From: Thermomicrobiales bacterium
Lineage (GTDB): Bacteria; Chloroflexota; Chloroflexia; Thermomicrobiales; UBA6265
Length of the DNA stretch: 64,000 nt
Assembly: GCA_046328335.1 (NCBI GenBank)
Contig: JAXLWU010000015.1
Location: 30,023 to 94,022 of the forward strand
Reading direction: 5' to 3'
In this document: positions 42,592 to 51,363 of the stretch, one piece after another
How the letters are laid out: the number at the start of each line of letters is the position of its first letter
Position numbering within the stretch: position 1 is the first letter of the stretch
The notes under the pieces: model-generated
Told to the model about the DNA's origin: nothing
The model's input: the letters and a program-made list of their open reading frames with translations, nothing else
The model's database searches: none
Program-made: the position numbers and the translations under genes

Positions 42592-43473
42592 CTAGCGGAG
42601 CGACGCCCCGCCGTCAACTGTCGCCGGAACTTCATCGACATTTACCTTCCAGAAACGTTCCGCCATCGTCCCTCCTCCGGCGTTTTGGGCGTAATTCGCC
42701 AGCGCAGCGCTGATTTCGTCACGCTTGGTGCCGACGCCGACATACTGGCGGAACACTGTTTCGAGTTGCGAAGGATAACTGAGGACCGCGGATATCTTGC
42801 GGTCCCACCCCGCCGCTGCCGGAACAGCGGCAGCCGCCGTGAGGGTGCCTTCTCCGATTGCCGCAAATCGCTCGCTCGTAGCGCCGGGTTTCATGGCGTA
42901 CGGGACGTCCTCATAAAACCAGACATCCCAGCCGGAACTGGCGAGCCCCCGGCCCGTTTCGTACGCCAGCTGGTGATCGACGTGGCTGCCGATGCCGATC
43001 GGCACATAGATGCGGACACTCAGGTCCGGTGCGGCCGGAAGATCGAGGGCAGAAGCAATTGCTCCGGGTACTGACGCTTCGTCTGCAAGGGGACGGTCGA
43101 ACAGTTGGTTGTCGGAAAGATACCGGTGGCCGCGGTAGATCGCGTCGCGAAAGGGGAGCACCGAACTCGTCGCTCCCAGGATTGCGGAAGCAGCGGCTTC
43201 TTCTGCGCGTCGCGACGCGATCACGGTTTCGGCGCTCAGCCCCCATCCCTCGTGCAACTGATGCGCGAACGAGGAGAGGGACTCCGTCGGATCGGGGTAA
43301 TCGCCGAAGATGACGACCGATTCCGGCGCGAAGCCAAGATCATGGAGTCGCGCCACCGTTGCTCCCACGGACAAGGCGATATCGTCGTAATGAGGTGATA
43401 GAAAAAGATGCCGAGTGGCGCTAGTCAGCAATTGCTCCGGAGATGTCTCGGTCGCCAACTGATCCCTCCCCAT
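42592..43473 (-). CDS. PIG-L/LmbE-family N-acetylglucosaminyl deacetylase
   Basis: The LFLSPHYDDIALSVGATVA (PHxDD) motif is near the N-terminus, with HVDH later. The start is ATG 43473, or TTG 43458 after GGGAGG. Both overlap the end of selB. Confidence 0.75.
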   Translation of the reverse strand: MGRDQLATETSPEQLLTSATRHLFLSPHYDDIALSVGATVARLHDLGFAPESVVIFGDYPDPTESLSSFAHQLHEGWGLSAETVIASRRAEEAAASAILGATSSVLPFRDAIYRGHRYLSDNQLFDRPLADEASVPGAIASALDLPAAPDLSVRIYVPIGIGSHVDHQLAYETGRGLASSGWDVWFYEDVPYAMKPGATSERFAAIGEGTLTAAAAVPAAAGWDRKISAVLSYPSQLETVFRQYVGVGTKRDEISAALANYAQNAGGGTMAERFWKVNVDEVPATVDGGASLR

Positions 43474-45451
43474 CTGGATTTTCGGTCGATCGTGGACCCG
43501 GACGTTTGGGGCCCCGTACGCGATCGTCCCCAATCCGGCGCGTGTAGCGAAGGAGATCCATCTGCTCGAGCGCTGCCTGAGCGTACTTTCGGCTGGTACC
43601 GAAGTGATCGCGAAACTGCGCGAGGGTAATCGAGCCATGGTCATCGATGAAGGCAAGGGTGCGGGCCGTGAGTTGCTCCCAGGAGTGCGGCGTGTAGTAG
43701 ATGCCATCCCCGACGCGGACGATCTTTCCCTGATGCTCGAGCACGATGAGCGATTCCGCGTCGAGGCCGGACTCATGGGGGCTCGGTGGACTCAGCGGGT
43801 TCGCCGCAAGCGAGGCAAGAAACGCATCCGCTTTTCCTTGCCGGGTGGGATCGAGGACAAGCGCGAACCCCGCGTCCCGGATGGTGGCGCCACCGTCCGA
43901 AATCGAGCCACGCCGCATTGCTTCACCGATTACCAGGTCAAATACACGGGGCGGTCGCAATCCCATTCGGGTGCGCAATTCTTCTCGCGGCATGCCCGGA
44001 CGCAGGGGATTGCTGGCGTGGAACCGCCTTAGGGTATCGATGAGTTGCTGCTCGATCTCGCCCCATCGCGTGGTTGCGACGACAACGTCAGTGGTGGTGA
44101 AACCCGGAGTTCCCGCTCCAAGGACCAAGACGTCGCCTTCGGCGATCAGTTGGCCGAGGGCGGCGTCGATCTGTCCCGCGGTCAGTCCGGCAACGCTCGC
44201 GCGAAGTTCGCCGATCTCAACCGGTCGGGACTCAATCGCTTGCAGGACGATTTCATCTGGACTACCAGCAGCGAGTGTCTCCAGAGCCGCGACAGTCTCC
44301 GGCCGGAATCGCTGGTGGCGGGGCGGGTTGGCATCGATGACCTCACCACCACCGATCGTTTCGCTCGGAGACGCGCGGCGCACAATGAACCGATCGCCTT
44401 TCCGCACGGCAAGCCGAGTGCGAAAGCGCAGTTGGACCCACCCGGTTTCCCCTGGGGGGATGGTGTCACGATCGAGCAACGTGGCCCATGCCGGCAACTC
44501 CGTGGCGCCCGTGAAGAAGTCGATCTCCGCGTTCTGCTTCAAGGTCATAGGCGAATCCTCGAGCAGGCGGAGCCTCACATCGATGCGCTGCGTCGGAGTC
44601 ATCGATTTTGGCGGAGCCAGCACGTCGCCCCGGCGAATTTCTTCTGTCGTAATCCCGGAGAGATTCACGGCGGTGCGCGTTCCTGGCGGCGCAATGCTGA
44701 CTTTGTGCTGGTGCGATTGAAGACCGCGGACGCGGGCGACGCGGTTACCAGGGTAGACCTGGACGTCGTCGCCGGTGGCGATGGTTCCTCCACTGAGCGT
44801 TCCCGTGACGACCGTGCCGAACCCAGCAACGGTGAAGACGCGGTCAACGGGAAGCCGGGGTGGTCCGCCGCGCACAGGGAGTGCACTCTCGCTCAATACC
44901 CGTTGCAGCGATAGAAGGAGTTCGGCAAGACCCCGACCGGTTGTGGCGGAAACGGGAACGATTGGGGCGCCGGCAAGTGAGGTGCTGTCGATTCGCTGTC
45001 GTACCTCCTCTGTCACCAGATCCAGCCACTCGTCGTCAACCAGATCCGCCTTGGTCAAGACGATCACGCCCCTCGACACTCCGAGGAGATCGAGAATCGC
45101 GAGATGCTCGGCGGTCTGGGGCATGGGGCCCTCGTCCGCGGCAATGACGAGCAGCGCGGCATCGATTCCGCCGACACCTGCCAGCATGTTCTTGATGAAC
45201 CGTTCGTGCCCGGGCACATCGACGATACTGACTTCGCGCCCACCCGGCAACGTCACCCAGGCAAAGCCGAGGTCGATTGTCATCGCCCGCGCTTTTTCCT
45301 CCGCCAGCCTATCGGGATCGATCCCGGTCAGGGCCTTTACCAAGGTCGACTTGCCGTGATCGACATGACCTGCGGTGCCGACAACGAAACTTCGGGTCGG
45401 GGGAACTTCAGCGCCGGAGGACACCTCAGCCATGGCCGTCGATCGGTTCAC
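43421..45451 (-). CDS. selB: selenocysteine-specific translation elongation factor SelB
   Basis: VGTAGHVDHGKSTLVKALTGIDPDRLAEEKARAMTIDLGFAW, DVPGHERFIKNMLAGVGGIDAALLVIAADEG and LTKADL. The long C-terminal winged-helix-like region brings it to 676 aa. It aligns closely by eye with E. coli SelB N-terminal blocks. Confidence 0.9.
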   Translation of the reverse strand: MNRSTAMAEVSSGAEVPPTRSFVVGTAGHVDHGKSTLVKALTGIDPDRLAEEKARAMTIDLGFAWVTLPGGREVSIVDVPGHERFIKNMLAGVGGIDAALLVIAADEGPMPQTAEHLAILDLLGVSRGVIVLTKADLVDDEWLDLVTEEVRQRIDSTSLAGAPIVPVSATTGRGLAELLLSLQRVLSESALPVRGGPPRLPVDRVFTVAGFGTVVTGTLSGGTIATGDDVQVYPGNRVARVRGLQSHQHKVSIAPPGTRTAVNLSGITTEEIRRGDVLAPPKSMTPTQRIDVRLRLLEDSPMTLKQNAEIDFFTGATELPAWATLLDRDTIPPGETGWVQLRFRTRLAVRKGDRFIVRRASPSETIGGGEVIDANPPRHQRFRPETVAALETLAAGSPDEIVLQAIESRPVEIGELRASVAGLTAGQIDAALGQLIAEGDVLVLGAGTPGFTTTDVVVATTRWGEIEQQLIDTLRRFHASNPLRPGMPREELRTRMGLRPPRVFDLVIGEAMRRGSISDGGATIRDAGFALVLDPTRQGKADAFLASLAANPLSPPSPHESGLDAESLIVLEHQGKIVRVGDGIYYTPHSWEQLTARTLAFIDDHGSITLAQFRDHFGTSRKYAQAALEQMDLLRYTRRIGDDRVRGPKRPGPRSTENPDGEGSVGDRDISGAIAD

Positions 45452-45506: not shown

Positions 45507-46394
45507 TCAGGAAAGACCGAACTGCTCCAGAATTTCGGCGTGGAACCAGCCTCCGCCGACCAGAATCGCATCGCCGCCGACTTCCACCGATTCGATGACG
45601 TTGGCAGACCCAGACACGCGGGCGAAGAGCGTGCTGGGTCTGCCCAGTTCTGCCCCCTGGGAGATTTGGATCTCCTGTCCCCACGGAATAAGTCCATTCC
45701 GCGCAAGGTGGAGCGCGAGAGGACCCGCCGCGGAACCGGTGGCCGGGTCTTCGATGACACCCGCACCGGGCGCAAACATCCTCGTTTTCCATTGGGTGCC
45801 TTCGCCCGAGAAGACATTCACGCCGATGAAGGGTAAATCGAGGTGCTCCGCGGCGCGCAACAACGCGCCTGAATCGGGAGCAAGGGCAGCCACGGCATCC
45901 GGATCCTTGACCATGAAATAGACGTGCCGCAGGCCGTTGTCGTAGAGAGTGACTGGCAGGAGAGAATCTGCGATCCCGAGCGCTGCGAGGAAAGGCACCG
46001 GTTGCGCGAACGGCTCGATCGACGGGATCGGCTGCCGCATGATGCCGCGCTTTGCTGGTCCGGTCCCGCCCACGTACCTGACGGCCACACGGCCGCCATT
46101 CGTTTCGAGGTCAATCGCTTGGCTCCGCTGCTGCTGAGCGAGATAAACGGCCGTTCCCAGCACCGGATGACCGGCAAACGGAATCTCACCACCAGGCGTG
46201 AAAATCCGCATCTTGGCAGCCCCGCCCGCTTCAGGCGGATAGAGAAAGACAGTCTCCGAAAAATTGATCTCTCGCGCCAATGGGTGAAGCATCTTCTCCG
46301 GAATGCTCGTGGCGTCCGGAAAGACGGCCAGTTGGTTGCCCGCCAGCGGTAGATCGGTGAAAACGTCGACGATCTGAAATTCCCAGCGACTCAC
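45507..46394 (-). CDS. PhzF-family isomerase-like protein
   Basis: FQIVDVFTDLPLAGNQLAVFPDA...EINFSETVF...FAGHPVLG...EDPATGSAAGPLA is the PhzF/YddE family pattern. GTG at 46394 comes 9 nt after the aroF stop, within TAAGGAGCGAACGTG. Confidence 0.85.
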   Translation of the reverse strand: MSRWEFQIVDVFTDLPLAGNQLAVFPDATSIPEKMLHPLAREINFSETVFLYPPEAGGAAKMRIFTPGGEIPFAGHPVLGTAVYLAQQQRSQAIDLETNGGRVAVRYVGGTGPAKRGIMRQPIPSIEPFAQPVPFLAALGIADSLLPVTLYDNGLRHVYFMVKDPDAVAALAPDSGALLRAAEHLDLPFIGVNVFSGEGTQWKTRMFAPGAGVIEDPATGSAAGPLALHLARNGLIPWGQEIQISQGAELGRPSTLFARVSGSANVIESVEVGGDAILVGGGWFHAEILEQFGLS

Positions 46395-46403
46395 GTTCGC
46401 TCC

Positions 46404-47450
46404 TTACGCCTGGGCACCGACAGTCATTTCTGCCGGCACGCTCTCCTCCACACCTCCGAGCAGGGCCGCGTGGAGCGCTCGTCCCAGGTCGATGATCGTG
46501 GCCAATTCCGCGGTGGAAATCGTCTGCTGCGCGTCGCACAACGCGGTCTCTGGATCTGGATGGGATTCGATGATCAGTCCGTCCGCTCCGGCGGCTAGTC
46601 CAGCGAGCGCCATTCGCGGCACCAGCGTGCGGCGGCCGGTCCCATGAGAGGGATCGACGATGATAGGCAGGTGACTGAGTTCCTTGACGAGTGGCACCGC
46701 ATTCAGATCGAGCGTGAACCGCGTCGAAGAATCGAAACTGCGGATGCCGCGCTCGCAGAGAACCACGTCCGGATTTCCGTACGCCATCACGTACTCGGCG
46801 CTCATCAGCCATTCTTCGATCGTCGCCGAGAACCCCCGTTTGAGGAGCACCGGCTTGCCCGACTGTCCGGCTCGCCGCAGCAATGGGAAATTGGCCATGT
46901 TCCGGGCTCCGATCTGCAGCATGTCGGCGTAGTGAGCCACCATTTCGACCTGGTCCGGTTCCATGACCTCGGTGACCACCGGCAGGCCCGTAACCTCGCG
47001 CGCCTCGGCCAGATACCGCAGCCCCTCCTCCCCGAGCCCCTGGAAGGCGTACGGCGAGGTTCGCGGCTTGAATGCGCCGCCGCGGAGCATATCGGCACCG
47101 GCGGCCTTGGTTTCCTTCGCTGACAGGAGCAGCGATGCCCTGCTTTCGATGACGCAAGGTCCGCCGATCACTACCGGCCGGCCCCCACCGATGCGCACAT
47201 TCCCGACCTTGACGACGCTCGGCGCGTGCGGTCGTCCTTCGCGACTGGCGAGCATGTAGGGGCGATGCTTCTCGATGACCCTGGAAACACCGGGCAATTC
47301 CTGGAACGGCAACGGGTCGCCGGCAATAGCGATGACGGTGCCCCCATGGCCGTCTGCCAGCGTTCGCAGTTCTGCTCCAGCCGCCAGCGCGGCCGCGCGG
47401 ACCACGGCAAGCGTTTCCAGCGGTGCAGTGGCGGTCAGCGTGACGATCAT
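46404..47450 (-). CDS. aroF: 3-deoxy-7-phosphoheptulonate (DAHP) synthase, class I-beta with N-terminal ferredoxin-like/ACT-type regulatory domain
   Basis: IGGPCVIES, ADMLRGGAFKPRTSPYAFQGLGEEGL, GLPVVTEV, KRG, IVDPSHG. ATG at 47450 comes 7 nt after AAGGAG. The ~70-aa N-terminal extra domain resembles that of Thermotoga-type DAHPS. Confidence 0.9.
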   Translation of the reverse strand: MIVTLTATAPLETLAVVRAAALAAGAELRTLADGHGGTVIAIAGDPLPFQELPGVSRVIEKHRPYMLASREGRPHAPSVVKVGNVRIGGGRPVVIGGPCVIESRASLLLSAKETKAAGADMLRGGAFKPRTSPYAFQGLGEEGLRYLAEAREVTGLPVVTEVMEPDQVEMVAHYADMLQIGARNMANFPLLRRAGQSGKPVLLKRGFSATIEEWLMSAEYVMAYGNPDVVLCERGIRSFDSSTRFTLDLNAVPLVKELSHLPIIVDPSHGTGRRTLVPRMALAGLAAGADGLIIESHPDPETALCDAQQTISTAELATIIDLGRALHAALLGGVEESVPAEMTVGAQA

Positions 47451-47502
47451 CGACGTGCTCCTTATCGCGGGTGTCTCCGGTCTCCACCTGACCGAGGACA
47501 AC

Positions 47503-47528
47503 AAAAAAACCGAGGTCATCGACCTCGG
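47503..47528 (-). terminator. intrinsic terminator inside the aroF 5' leader (attenuator terminator)
   Basis: The minus strand reads ccgaggtc-gat-gacctcgg followed by ttttttt (47509-47503). It lies 52 nt upstream of the aroF ATG and ~30 nt downstream of the leader ORF stop. Confidence 0.75.
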
Positions 47529-47560
47529 CCCCGGCGCTGCTTACTGGTGTTTGCGGACGT

Positions 47561-47665
47561 CTAGCGGTTCACCGCCTGTCGTCCCGCCAGCAGCGCCGGG
47601 GGAACGTAGCCAAAATAGACGTAGCCGAACCAACGGGCAGCAGCGGCTCCGCGGTTTCGCCACAT
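47561..47665 (-). CDS. aromatic-rich leader peptide ORF (34 codons)
   Basis: atg tgg cga aac cgc gga gcc gct gct gcc cgt tgg ttc ggc tac gtc tat ttt ggc tac gtt ccc ccg gcg ctg ctg gcg gga cga cag gcg gtg aac cgc tag translates to MWRNRGAAAARWFGYVYFGYVPPALLAGRQAVNR. GGGAG lies 10 nt upstream. An in-frame upstream ATG at 47695 would give 44 codons. Confidence 0.65.
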   Translation of the reverse strand: MWRNRGAAAARWFGYVYFGYVPPALLAGRQAVNR

Positions 47666-47701
47666 CTCAGTTGGCTCCCAGGCAGATGTTGGCATGGCGG
47701 C

Positions 47702-47730
47702 ACAGTACCGGGAGCCGACCGCGCTGTCAA
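47702..47730 (-). promoter_or_regulatory. sigma70-type promoter of the aroF leader
   Basis: The minus strand reads TTGACA (47730-47725), a 17-nt spacer, then TACTGT (47707-47702). Confidence 0.6.
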
Positions 47731-47762
47731 GCCCCGCGGAATGAATCCGCTAGACTTCGCTC

Positions 47763-48434
47763 ATGGATCAGGATCGATCGACAAGGGGCGGAAATTCCGG
47801 CGCACCGATGCAGACGCCACTGCAATTGACGCGCAGCCCAAGACTGGACAACGCGCTGCGCTTCGGCTGGGAGTCGTTCCGCAGGACGCTGGCAGCGGCT
47901 GGCGCCGGCGAAGCCTCGCGCTGGATAGCAATGCGGCTGGATGATCCCGAGTCGGCCGAGGTGACCGAACCTCTTCTCCGGGCCGCGCTCGGCGATGACG
48001 CTGAGGAAGCGGCAGACGCCCTGTTTGGGCTTGCCGAACTTGCCGAGGAGGCGGACGACGACCTCCTCGCCGACACGCTCTGGGAGGGTGTCCTCGACCT
48101 CGGACGTGCGCAGGAAGACGGTGACGTCATCGCGGAGGCGACACGTCGCCTGGCAACAGTCGCCGAGCGAAATGGCGATCCTCTCGCCGCTGCCGAGTTC
48201 CATATCGGCTTCCTCAATTGGCGCCGGGAGGCAAATCACTCCTCTGATCCGGAAGATGTCGAATTGGCCTTTGACGAAATCATCCGCCTCGCCGAGAGCG
48301 ATGGCGCGCCTCGGCCGGCGGCGGAGTATGCCTTCCGTCAGGCCGAATTCACGCGGTTGCTGGATCAGGAGGATCCCAGCACCGTCGAGGGGAACTGGGA
48401 CGAACGCTCGCCAGAGTACGCTTCCTGGGCGTGA
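47763..48434 (+). CDS. hypothetical acidic helical protein
   Basis: 223-aa ORF (alternative ATG at 47808), Asp/Glu/Ala/Leu-rich and helical-repeat-like. No recognised motif. It is divergent from the aroF leader. Confidence 0.55.
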   Translation: MDQDRSTRGGNSGAPMQTPLQLTRSPRLDNALRFGWESFRRTLAAAGAGEASRWIAMRLDDPESAEVTEPLLRAALGDDAEEAADALFGLAELAEEADDDLLADTLWEGVLDLGRAQEDGDVIAEATRRLATVAERNGDPLAAAEFHIGFLNWRREANHSSDPEDVELAFDEIIRLAESDGAPRPAAEYAFRQAEFTRLLDQEDPSTVEGNWDERSPEYASWA

Positions 48435-48931: not shown

Positions 48932-48995
48932 TGTTCTCGGCATACAGATCGAGCGAGTTTGATTGTTGGTACCGGCACCGAGAGGGGAGATCGCG

Positions 48996-50288
48996 ATGGT
49001 TCAGGCACTCGAGCGTGAAACGTTGAATCCCGCGGAGTTGATTCCGCGCGTCATCGGCCGCTATTCCCCACTGCATATCGACCATGGCAAAGGAATCTAT
49101 CTCTGGGATGTCAATGGCGAGCGATACGCCGACTTCACATCGGGCATCGCCGTGGTCAATACGGGCCACTGTCATCCACGCGTGGTCGCCGCAATCCAGG
49201 AGCAGGCAGCGACGATCATCCATGCGCAGGCCAACATCCTCGCGCACTCGCCGATGATGCGCGCGGCGAAACTGCTTACGGAAACGTTGCCCGCGAACCT
49301 CAATCAGGTCTTTTGGACGAACAGCGGCGCGGAGGCGACCGAAGGGGCGATCAAACTTGCAAAGATCGCCACCGGCCGGCCTGCGGTCATCGCGTTCCGG
49401 CACGGGTTCCACGGTCGCACTCACGCCGCCATGGCGGTAACTTCCTCGCGGGTCAAGGTACGCGGGCACTACGAGCCGTTGATCTCCAGCGTGTACCACG
49501 CGCCGTTCCCGTATGTCTTCCGCAGCCCGTTCAAGGGCGCGGCGCAAGATGCCGATCTCTACTATTTCGCGGAGTTGGAAGCCCTCTTCGATCACCTGGT
49601 CATGCCCGATGACGTGGCAGCGATGATCATCGAGACCGTGGTTGGCGAAGGCGGATATCTGATCCCGACCAGGCGCTGGTTGCAAATGGTTCGTGAACTC
49701 TGCGACCGCCATGGAATCATGCTGATCCTGGACGAAGTCCAATCGGGCATGGGTCGTACCGGCAAGATGTGGGCATTCGAGCATTTCGATGTCGTTCCCG
49801 ACATCATGACGGCGGCGAAAGGCCTCGCCTCCGGCATGCCGGTGGCCGCGGTTGTCTCTGACAAGGCGATCATGGACAAGTGGGCGCCGGGGTCCCACGG
49901 TGGAACCTACGGTGGAAACGCGGTCGGCACCGCGGCCGCGGCGGCCACGCTCGAAGTCATGCGCGACGAAGACCTGCCGGGGAATGCTGCCCGGATGGGC
50001 GAGATTCTGACAGCGGGCCTCCGCGAGATCCAGGCGGACTATCCGGTCATCGGAGACGTGCGGGGTCTCGGCCTGATGGTGGCGACGGAGTTCGTCAATC
50101 CAGATGGCTCGCCGAACCCGGAGGCGGTCAAGGCGGTCGTCGCTCGTGCGTTCGACGAGAAGACCCTGCTGATTACCTGTGGCACGTACGATCAGGCGAT
50201 TCGGATCGTGCCGCCACTTGTCGTGAACGAGGAGCAGATTCACGACTTCCTGGGCATGTACCGGCGTGCAGTGGCAGCGGCGTCGTGA
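48996..50288 (+). CDS. class-III PLP aminotransferase (4-aminobutyrate/omega-aminotransferase type)
   Basis: SGIAVVNTGHCHPRV, TNSGAEATEGAIKLA, LILDEVQSGMGRTGKMWAFEHF, TAAKGLASGMP (PLP Lys). ATG at 48996 follows GAGAGGGGAG. Confidence 0.85.
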   Translation: MVQALERETLNPAELIPRVIGRYSPLHIDHGKGIYLWDVNGERYADFTSGIAVVNTGHCHPRVVAAIQEQAATIIHAQANILAHSPMMRAAKLLTETLPANLNQVFWTNSGAEATEGAIKLAKIATGRPAVIAFRHGFHGRTHAAMAVTSSRVKVRGHYEPLISSVYHAPFPYVFRSPFKGAAQDADLYYFAELEALFDHLVMPDDVAAMIIETVVGEGGYLIPTRRWLQMVRELCDRHGIMLILDEVQSGMGRTGKMWAFEHFDVVPDIMTAAKGLASGMPVAAVVSDKAIMDKWAPGSHGGTYGGNAVGTAAAAATLEVMRDEDLPGNAARMGEILTAGLREIQADYPVIGDVRGLGLMVATEFVNPDGSPNPEAVKAVVARAFDEKTLLITCGTYDQAIRIVPPLVVNEEQIHDFLGMYRRAVAAAS

Positions 50289-50445: not shown

Positions 50446-51363
50446 ATGCCCGAACAGGGAACGGGCTTCCATCACGTGCTGAGCCAGTCGATGACCGGAC
50501 AGCAACCGCTGAAACTCGCGGTGCAACGATCGGGGCGGCTGACGCAGGACACGCTCGACCTTCTTCATGCCATTGGTCTGGAGTTCGAGAGTTACGGACA
50601 GCGCCTTTTTTCACACTGCCGGAACTTTCCGCTCTCGATCCTCTATGCCCGCGATGACGATATTCCCGGATATCTCGGGCTGGGGACCGTCGATCTGGGA
50701 ATCGTCGGGCGAAATTTGATCCATGAAGAAGGGGTGCGGGTCGAAGAACTGGCGACGCTTGGGTTTGGTTACTGCGAACTGGTGCTTGCCACGCTGCGCG
50801 ATGCCCAGTACACCGACCCGCGAGAACTGCTCCGGGCGCGAATCGCGACGTCCTATCCCAAGTCTGCCCGGAAGTATTTCGAATCCCTTGACGGCGATCC
50901 GGAAATCATCACGATCAGTGGCTCCGTGGAGGTCGCGCCATCACTCGGGCTTGCGGACGCGATCGTGGAATTGACCGCGACCGGATCGACCCTGATGTTG
51001 AACGATTTGCGACCAATGGCGACGATCCTCGAATCGCAGGCGGTACTGGCGGCAAACCCGGTATCGATGGCGGATCCAGCGCGGCGGGAGAACATCGACC
51101 GCCTGCTGATGCGAATCAATGCGGTTCGCGTTGCCAAGCGGTACAAGTACCTGATGATGAACGCCCCAGAAGCGGCGTTGCCCGCAATTCGCGCTGTGGT
51201 CCCGGGTCTCAAGGCTCCGACGATCGTGCCCCTCGCGGACCCTGGTTGGGTTGCGGTCCACACCGCGATCGAAGAAGACGCCTTCTGGGAGTCGATCGAA
51301 CGGCTGCGCGCGGCGGGGGCGACCGAAATACTCGTCTCGTCCCTGGAAAAACTCCTACTGTGA
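50446..51363 (+). CDS. hisG: ATP phosphoribosyltransferase, long form
   Basis: LKLAVQRSGRLTQDTLDLLHAIGL, ILYARDDDIPGYLGLGTVDLGIVGRN, and a C-terminal regulatory domain is present. The start is ATG 50446 (after CAGGAGGA) or ATG 50491. Confidence 0.9.
   Translation: MPEQGTGFHHVLSQSMTGQQPLKLAVQRSGRLTQDTLDLLHAIGLEFESYGQRLFSHCRNFPLSILYARDDDIPGYLGLGTVDLGIVGRNLIHEEGVRVEELATLGFGYCELVLATLRDAQYTDPRELLRARIATSYPKSARKYFESLDGDPEIITISGSVEVAPSLGLADAIVELTATGSTLMLNDLRPMATILESQAVLAANPVSMADPARRENIDRLLMRINAVRVAKRYKYLMMNAPEAALPAIRAVVPGLKAPTIVPLADPGWVAVHTAIEEDAFWESIERLRAAGATEILVSSLEKLLL

Follow-up and report, generated by a model that had tools for sequence, protein, structure and literature searches.

The present analysis concerns a 64,000-nucleotide stretch of a Thermomicrobiales bacterium (GenBank assembly GCA_046328335.1, contig JAXLWU010000015.1, positions 30,023 to 94,022 of the forward strand; hereafter the window) and, within it, the minus-strand leader of aroF, the gene for 3-deoxy-D-arabino-heptulosonate 7-phosphate (DAHP) synthase. 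This leader is very likely to be a ribosome-mediated transcription attenuator that controls an operon of aroF and a PhzF-family gene, although the regulation itself is something we infer from sequence. A preliminary description of the locus had seen in it the classical trpL/pheL attenuation signature. The promoter, the run of aromatic codons and the intrinsic terminator of that signature were borne out, but the clade to which the organism belongs shows no antiterminator pairing with the 5′ arm of the terminator. The earlier reading also missed the most conserved RNA element of the leader, a long helix (here B:C) that lies between the aromatic codons and the terminator and ends where the latter begins.

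The elements of the leader follow one another closely on the minus strand, and the TTGACA-N17-TACTGT promoter, the aromatic run, the GC hairpin with its seven U and the AAGGAG-N7-ATG of aroF all lie where they had first been placed. The -35 hexamer TTGACA (47725..47730) is separated by 17 nucleotides (nt) from the -10 hexamer TACTGT (47702..47707), which is of the TAnnnT type, and GCCGCC intervenes between the latter and an ATG at 47695 that opens a leader open reading frame (ORF) of 44 codons plus stop (MPTSAWEPTEMWRNRGAAAARWFGYVYFGYVPPALLAGRQAVNR; 47561..47695), closed by the TAG at 47563-47561. The codons at 47632-47606 (TGG TTC GGC TAC GTC TAT TTT GGC TAC) form the putative regulatory run W-F-G-Y-V-Y-F-G-Y, in which six of nine are aromatic and Trp, Phe and Tyr are all present. 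Strand B of the helix (CCCCGGCGCUGCU; 47589..47601) begins 4 nt past the last aromatic codon, encodes Pro-Pro-Ala-Leu-Leu, and pairs as 47601-47589 with 47541-47529, that is, with strand C (AGCAGCGCCGGGG; 47529..47541), in the minimum-free-energy fold; the two strands enclose a variable inner hairpin domain (47554..47587), which holds the leader stop codon. The 3′ G-run of strand C leads straight into the terminator, with no nucleotide in between. The terminator itself (CCGAGGUC-GAU-GACCUCGG and U7 in RNA; 47503..47528) corresponds in DNA to a stem CCGAGGTC (47528-47521), the loop GAT, a stem GACCTCGG (47517-47510) and seven T (47509-47503), and a conserved GUUG follows the U tract, extending to 47499. 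The opening of aroF, AAGGAG-N7-ATG, spans 47463-47448, with the Shine-Dalgarno (SD) sequence at 47458..47463, 7 nt ahead of the ATG at 47450. The U tract and this ATG are 52 nt apart, and this interval lacks any TAnnnT, so that there is no room for a separate aroF promoter. Within it, the sequence of the terminator 3′ arm (UCCUCGGUC) is repeated at 47470-47499 (minus strand) as part of a second hairpin ahead of the aroF SD sequence; the CCUCGGUC repeat that follows the U tract was considered as a part of the element and set aside, since it is absent from the orthologous locus L004.

Four observations exclude chance as the origin of these features. A stretch of nine codons with six aromatic ones occurs once in its six frames, at the leader, and the composite pattern TTGAC-N16-18-TAnnnT-N5-9-ATG/GTG occurs once on its two strands, again at the leader. 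No other terminator-like site in the 3 kb scanned is as strong as the leader hairpin (12 pairs including G-U), and the leader fold (z = -3.8) is more stable than all 200 dinucleotide shuffles. A promoter scan based on TATAAT missed the leader promoter because its -10 hexamer is of the TAnnnT type, TACTGT matching TATAAT at three of six positions. The reality of this predicted promoter rests on its conservation.

For the comparison, a genome scan with the enzyme gave 19 loci, mostly from Chloroflexota metagenome-assembled genomes (MAGs), a metagenome scan gave 80 additional loci, and twelve look-ups of close homologues (69-81% identity; Thermomicrobiales, Chloroflexia or Chloroflexota by annotation) gave 18 more. 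The clade considered here consists of 25 complete orthologous loci of Thermomicrobiales/Chloroflexia-like origin, and the tests of structure and composition were made on 21 non-redundant leaders among them. A single layout is kept in 25/25 complete loci: TTGAC(A/G/T), 17-18 nt, TAnnnT, 6-9 nt, and an ATG or GTG that opens an ORF of 32-50 codons with at least five aromatic codons in nine, followed by a long helix B:C, the terminator and, 45-150 nt past it, the DAHP synthase start codon. Conservation of the aromatic cluster and of its reading frame had been set beforehand as a test, and both are retained in all 25. Two further loci cut by a contig end (L002 and L003) still show the retained 3′ part, and ORFs of 31-47 amino acids had already been predicted at the leader position by independent gene callers in seven loci (L100, L103, L105-L108 and L110). 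The leader ORFs of L001 (2840-2875) and L101 (~660-700) differ by one C within a CCCCC run encoding Pro-Pro (alignment A2, columns 115-125), which shifts the frame downstream of the aromatic run; a homopolymer error is likely, given the long-read-style assemblies behind both contigs. The alternative frame of the window (ORF 47569-47730) likewise stops at a UGA within the B:C domain.

This conservation bears on where the leader peptide begins. The preliminary description had placed a 34-codon ORF at 47665-47561, and the ATG at 47665 does open MWRNRG...AVNR and run to the TAG stop, but the conserved start is the one at 47695, which gives 44 amino acids. An ATG or GTG directly after the -10 hexamer is universal in the clade (in the window, 6 nt after it), while the internal ATG, considered as the leader start, has no counterpart in L004, which lacks a Met there, nor in other members. 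The leader is thus most likely a leaderless 44-amino-acid ORF initiated at 47695. This longer in-frame ORF is present in the ORF list.

What is conserved in the peptide is best described as a composition. The run keeps its aromatic content without keeping its order, reading WFGYVYFGY, WYGYVFFGY, FWFFFGYY, WYYYYF, FGFWFAFTY or FGFYAWF in different members, and Trp, Phe and Tyr are all represented in 19 of the 21 leaders. The aromatic fraction of the run is 0.72 in frame as against 0.10 and 0.18 in the other two frames, and aromatic residues are rare outside it (14/723, or 1.9%). Subclades share neither the sequence nor the length of the N-terminal portion of the peptide. This combination, a frame-specific run conserved in composition and not in order behind an unrelated N-terminus, argues for regulatory codons and against a functional peptide or an RNA motif. 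A word-indexed search returned no homologue of the 44-amino-acid peptide, and it belongs to no NCBIfam or Pfam family.

The second line of evidence comes from the RNA. In the RNAalifold consensus of the 21 leaders only two helices are conserved, B:C and the terminator. Considered jointly, 93% of their cells are paired, as against 39-50% in slid controls, and 10 of 18 pairs show double changes, six of them in B:C and four in the terminator, a degree of covariation that was reached by none of 500 shuffles. The terminator is kept throughout the clade loci, and L005, L021 and L022 carry a few compensatory changes in it. Non-synonymous changes in the PPALL codons of strand B are compensated in strand C, which explains the conserved peptide tail “PPALLAGR” by helix B:C. 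The gap between the aromatic run and strand B has a median of 3 nt; the leader stop codon lies within the domain enclosed by B:C in 21/21, at a median of 39 nt past the start of B; and the linker between strand C and the terminator is 0 nt in 15 leaders, 1 nt in four and 2 nt in two. The enclosed inner domain, by comparison, varies in length and sequence.

This arrangement allows a model of attenuation to be proposed, in which B:C is the one element whose state would have to follow the position of the ribosome. Transcription would start approximately 6-7 nt past TACTGT, such that the mRNA begins at or beside the AUG at 47695, and the 44-codon leader peptide would be translated without an SD sequence, codons 22-30 forming the Trp/Phe/Tyr-rich run. 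When charged aromatic tRNAs are plentiful, the ribosome may pass through B to the stop codon inside the B:C domain, where it would block B:C while the polymerase transcribes the terminator; the terminator could then form, the purine tract at its base being free, and transcription would end at the U tract. Should one or more of the three charged tRNAs run short, the ribosome would instead stall in the run, just upstream of B, allowing a 13-20-bp helix B:C to form flush against the terminator, with the result that termination is weakened and the polymerase reads into aroF. That the position of the ribosome gates B:C is suggested by the geometry of the leader, and that a ribosome at the stop codon excludes B:C is likewise suggested on steric grounds. 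The weakest step is the last, by which B:C would lower termination; it is called for because the usual logic of such systems is that starvation leads to read-through. Two routes may be envisaged. By the first, strand B would sequester a tract of 4-5 G/A nucleotides at the 3′ end of C which, when free, could pair with the first U's and so extend the 8-bp terminator stem to 12 bp; the stem has a median stability of -11.9 kcal/mol as a core and -17.6 kcal/mol in the purine-extended form. By the second, a rigid helix joined through the universal linker of 0-2 nt would hinder the base of the terminator stem sterically. It is possible, if rather doubtful, that the clade helix gates termination by such abutment, without competition for nucleotides and thus by a wiring distinct from the textbook 2:3/3:4 strand exchange. 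In that event, the helix, together with the ribosome stalled at its other strand, might prevent the hairpin from being completed within the RNA exit channel, withhold the purine tract, or both.

Several observations weigh against this interpretation and are best considered together. An antiterminator was sought, and the core 5′ arm of the terminator has no upstream partner beyond chance in the clade (duplex z ≥ -0.2); its modelled sequestration is 0.42 with the ribosome stalled and 0.53 with the ribosome at the stop codon, and an outward extension of B:C over the arm does no better than shuffles (mean z = +0.18, with 0/21 leaders significant at p ≤ 0.05). In equilibrium folding with ribosome footprints, the terminator has a probability of about 1 in every state. 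Coaxial stacking of B:C could equally stabilize the terminator, and a GC-rich stem of 8 bp followed by U7 would be a competent terminator by itself in E. coli. L108 and L109 have an interrupted purine tract, such that the stem extension is not a universal link. Finally, GGGAG lies 9 nt upstream of the internal ATG at 47665, which may serve as a start in this one genome; such internal initiation would lead to translation of the same run. The equilibrium test was dropped as uninformative because distant leaders with an obvious antiterminator show the same insensitivity.

On the modelling, the clade appears to have no classical antiterminator with nucleotides in common with the terminator 5′ arm; B:C overlaps the terminator solely through the 4-5-nt purine tract of the possible extended stem. 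Several candidates were set aside along the way. An extension of B:C in which the last aromatic codons cover the terminator arm failed the shuffle control and was rejected as a selected feature. Pairing of the 3′ part of C to the terminator 3′ arm, and of B to the 5′ arm, was also checked by hand; these alternatives are either much weaker than B:C or would keep a hairpin at the U tract.

More distant relatives of the enzyme provide a useful contrast. An aromatic mini-ORF is found upstream of 17 of 62 distant type I-beta DAHP synthase genes, as opposed to 1 of 62 in antisense (Fisher p = 5e-5), the 62 being the loci with enough upstream sequence; matches that were the C-terminus of an upstream pheA were excluded. 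The distant mini-ORFs encode 23-32 amino acids, and many of the distant leaders end in strong terminators. Leaders such as L052, L055/L086, L062, L067 and L091 share with the clade the gene family, a mixed W/F/Y run and a terminal terminator, but differ in having the classical design, with direct pairing between the terminator 5′ arm and the segment that immediately follows the run; neither their peptides (for example, “...SGVCPP...”) nor their RNAs can be aligned with those of the clade. In ten distant leaders, the best partner of the 5′ arm lies -2 to +7 nt past the run (+17 in L033), and the pairing (-15 to -29 kcal/mol, z from -1.8 to -4.1) makes the segment after the run, as modelled, a textbook antiterminator. 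When the RNA of the distant leaders is modelled just before the 3′ arm is made, the 5′ arm is sequestered to 0.76 with the ribosome stalled versus 0.43 with it at the stop codon, and within this model the general design works as classical attenuation. A further variant is seen in Dormibacterota-like MAGs (L013:745-1265, L015:2473-3003 and L019:1-150), where genes for an aroH-type chorismate mutase and then DAHP synthase come after an aromatic mini-ORF (for example, MSGRVQFAGFYFYAYLGPARDRLGMG). These three loci have no U-tract terminator; a helix GGGCCGG:CCGGCCC directly after the run adjoins a hairpin of an anti-SD sequence (UCCUCC) with the SD sequence (GGAGG), which suggests translational rather than transcriptional attenuation. 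A model of SD sequestration in these loci gave no clean switch in SD accessibility.

One rival reading is that the clade leader is a classical four-segment attenuator of the trpL type whose antiterminator has been overlooked, for example one in which the 3′ half of the run extends B:C over the terminator arm upon stalling at the first aromatic codons. In the window, a ribosome placed at W22, F23 or Y25 leaves the arm sequestered to 0.64-0.79, with similar values in L004, L100-L103 and L117, and the extension would add about 6-7 kcal/mol in the window, L004, L104 and L106. However, the register of this pairing differs between members, the complementarity is no better than that of shuffled flanks or of other windows of the same ORF, and stalling at the Phe and Tyr codons further along would leave such a device unaffected; we regard it as unlikely. 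It could also be argued that mini-ORF and hairpin together constitute an independent gene for a small protein or small RNA that carries its own terminator, with aroF transcribed separately, as the annotation of 31-47-amino-acid ORFs by gene callers and the apparent strength of the terminator might indicate. Against this, the 52 nt between the U tract and the aroF ATG offer no TAnnnT, the peptide is conserved only in its aromatic composition and where the RNA helix constrains it, it matches no protein family, and across widely separated lineages the element is confined to positions upstream of DAHP synthase or aroH-DAHP synthase operons, all of which renders the proposal highly improbable.

The strong covariation of B:C could alternatively reflect a riboregulator in which the helix and the inner hairpin bind a ligand, a tRNA or a protein (riboswitch, T-box or TRAP-like), the ORF being incidental, and the folding models, which reveal no RNA-only switch, have been counted on its side. 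Of the explanations considered, this is the least probable. Rfam returned no family, T-box included, at E ≤ 10 in 47200-48000, and nothing relevant at the gathering score in the whole window; the inner domain is variable in length and sequence; and the in-frame run, the fixed position of the ATG and the stop codon inside the domain would be unexplained without translation. Lastly, the logic may be reversed or not nutritional at all, with a constitutive partial terminator and a leader that tunes basal expression or mRNA stability, a notion with which the prediction of the terminator in every modelled state agrees. This would leave unexplained both the codons for all three end products in 19/21 leaders and the clear ribosome-gated antiterminators predicted for the distant relatives, and it too has very little probability. 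A leader-peptide attenuator that senses charged aromatic tRNAs continues to be the preferred reading of the locus.

The gene downstream of the leader (46404..47450, minus strand) encodes an aroF/aroG-type DAHP synthase of 348 amino acids with an N-terminal extension. As had been proposed, it is a DAHP synthase by its match to Pfam DAHP_synth_1 (PF00793; E = 3e-79), and its closest solved relatives are of type I-beta (PDB 1vs1, 1rzm and 4grs). The alignment to the Thermotoga maritima enzyme (DAH7PS; 1rzm) starts at residue 21, by which the N-terminal extension would be homologous to the regulatory domain of that enzyme; the ferredoxin-like regulatory domain suggested in the preliminary description fits this picture. 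A PhzF-family gene (46394-45507, minus strand) follows aroF by 10 nt, as it does in most clade loci (15/18 of those fetched by look-up). Synteny is conserved for the genes around the leader at 45507-46394 and 43421-45451 on the minus strand and at 47763-48434 and 48963-50288 on the plus strand. A class-III aminotransferase gene is divergent and upstream of the leader, likewise in L101 and L111-L115, and selB is found downstream, likewise in L117. Further away, an ORF at 50446-51363 (plus strand, start at 50446) resembles hisG (ATP phosphoribosyltransferase), and the run scan showed no mini-ORF of His codons upstream of it, nor did Rfam give an element anywhere in the window. In a Thermoflexus-like lineage and others (L006, L008-L011, L014, L017, L018, L034, L043, L047 and L076), the DAHP synthase gene is directly preceded by pheA, encoding prephenate dehydratase with an ACT-domain motif (PWEYVFYVDFEGH), and has no leader ORF, an alternative operon arrangement around the same enzyme.

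The closest functional precedent is the aroR leader of Corynebacterium glutamicum, which the preliminary description had pointed to and which the literature confirms. There, aroR is a validated leader with the codons Phe-Tyr-Phe upstream of aroF, and read-through rises upon ribosome stalling (Neshat et al., 2014, as summarized in PMC11802643; also PMC4046766); it is described as having three aromatic codons and as responding to Phe and not to Tyr (Neshat et al., 2014; PMC11802643). The leader peptide of the C. glutamicum ilvB attenuator is likewise documented as being translated without a ribosome-binding site (RBS) (Morbach, 2000, cited in PMC4046766). Insofar as aroR can be compared by description, the two systems have in common a short aromatic leader peptide before a DAHP synthase gene in high-GC organisms with TAnnnT promoters, whereas the present leader belongs to another phylum and has a run of 5-7 aromatic codons that includes Trp; the architecture with an abutting B:C helix is not known to apply to aroR, and neither leader has a model in NCBIfam or Pfam. 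The enzyme regulated by aroR is of a different DAHP synthase subtype. With trpL, pheL and hisL of E. coli, the leader shares a promoter-proximal mini-ORF, codons for the end products, a terminator before the first gene and a helix that would depend on the ribosome. In those leaders, however, the antiterminator (2:3) shares its 3′ strand with the 5′ arm of the terminator, whereas here the gated helix would end where the terminator begins; those leaders also have an RBS, while the Chloroflexota leader appears to be leaderless, with mixed sensing of three amino acids and no Rfam match. A third parallel is the uORFC-13-1 motif of the Breaker laboratory, a predicted upstream ORF of Phe codons directly upstream of a terminator before aroF in Acholeplasma, which has an additional conserved base-paired substructure whose role was left unexplained (PMC8632094). 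Compared by description, this motif differs in being a computational prediction in a low-GC Mollicute, with an RBS and a U-run encoding Phe only.

In agreement with the initial impression that nothing of the kind had been described in Chloroflexota-like genomes, full-text literature searches returned no such leader for a type I-beta DAHP synthase, in Chloroflexi or elsewhere, and no model in Rfam, Pfam or NCBIfam covers the leader element. The element would appear to work like a leader-peptide attenuator but to fail one defining feature of the classical kind, the antiterminator that shares nucleotides with the terminator. It is of a familiar kind, with a direct functional precedent; the phylum is new, the design is common yet unannotated, and its adjacent-helix wiring can be tested. 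Leader-peptide attenuation, documented mainly in Proteobacteria and Actinobacteria, would be extended to Chloroflexota, and control of the first committed enzyme of the pathway by one sensor for Trp, Phe and Tyr together appears to be widespread among type I-beta DAHP synthases, such a sensor being present at 27% of the distant loci sampled. For annotation, the leaders point to a class of leaderless ORFs of 32-50 amino acids (23-32 in the distant leaders) that fall below the usual cut-offs. For mechanism, they may provide a natural case of a sensor helix that is adjacent to the terminator and does not overlap it, in which the effect of an abutting helix on termination could be tested by mutants. 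For the engineering of aromatic-compound production in non-model hosts, the leader would be a control point to remove.

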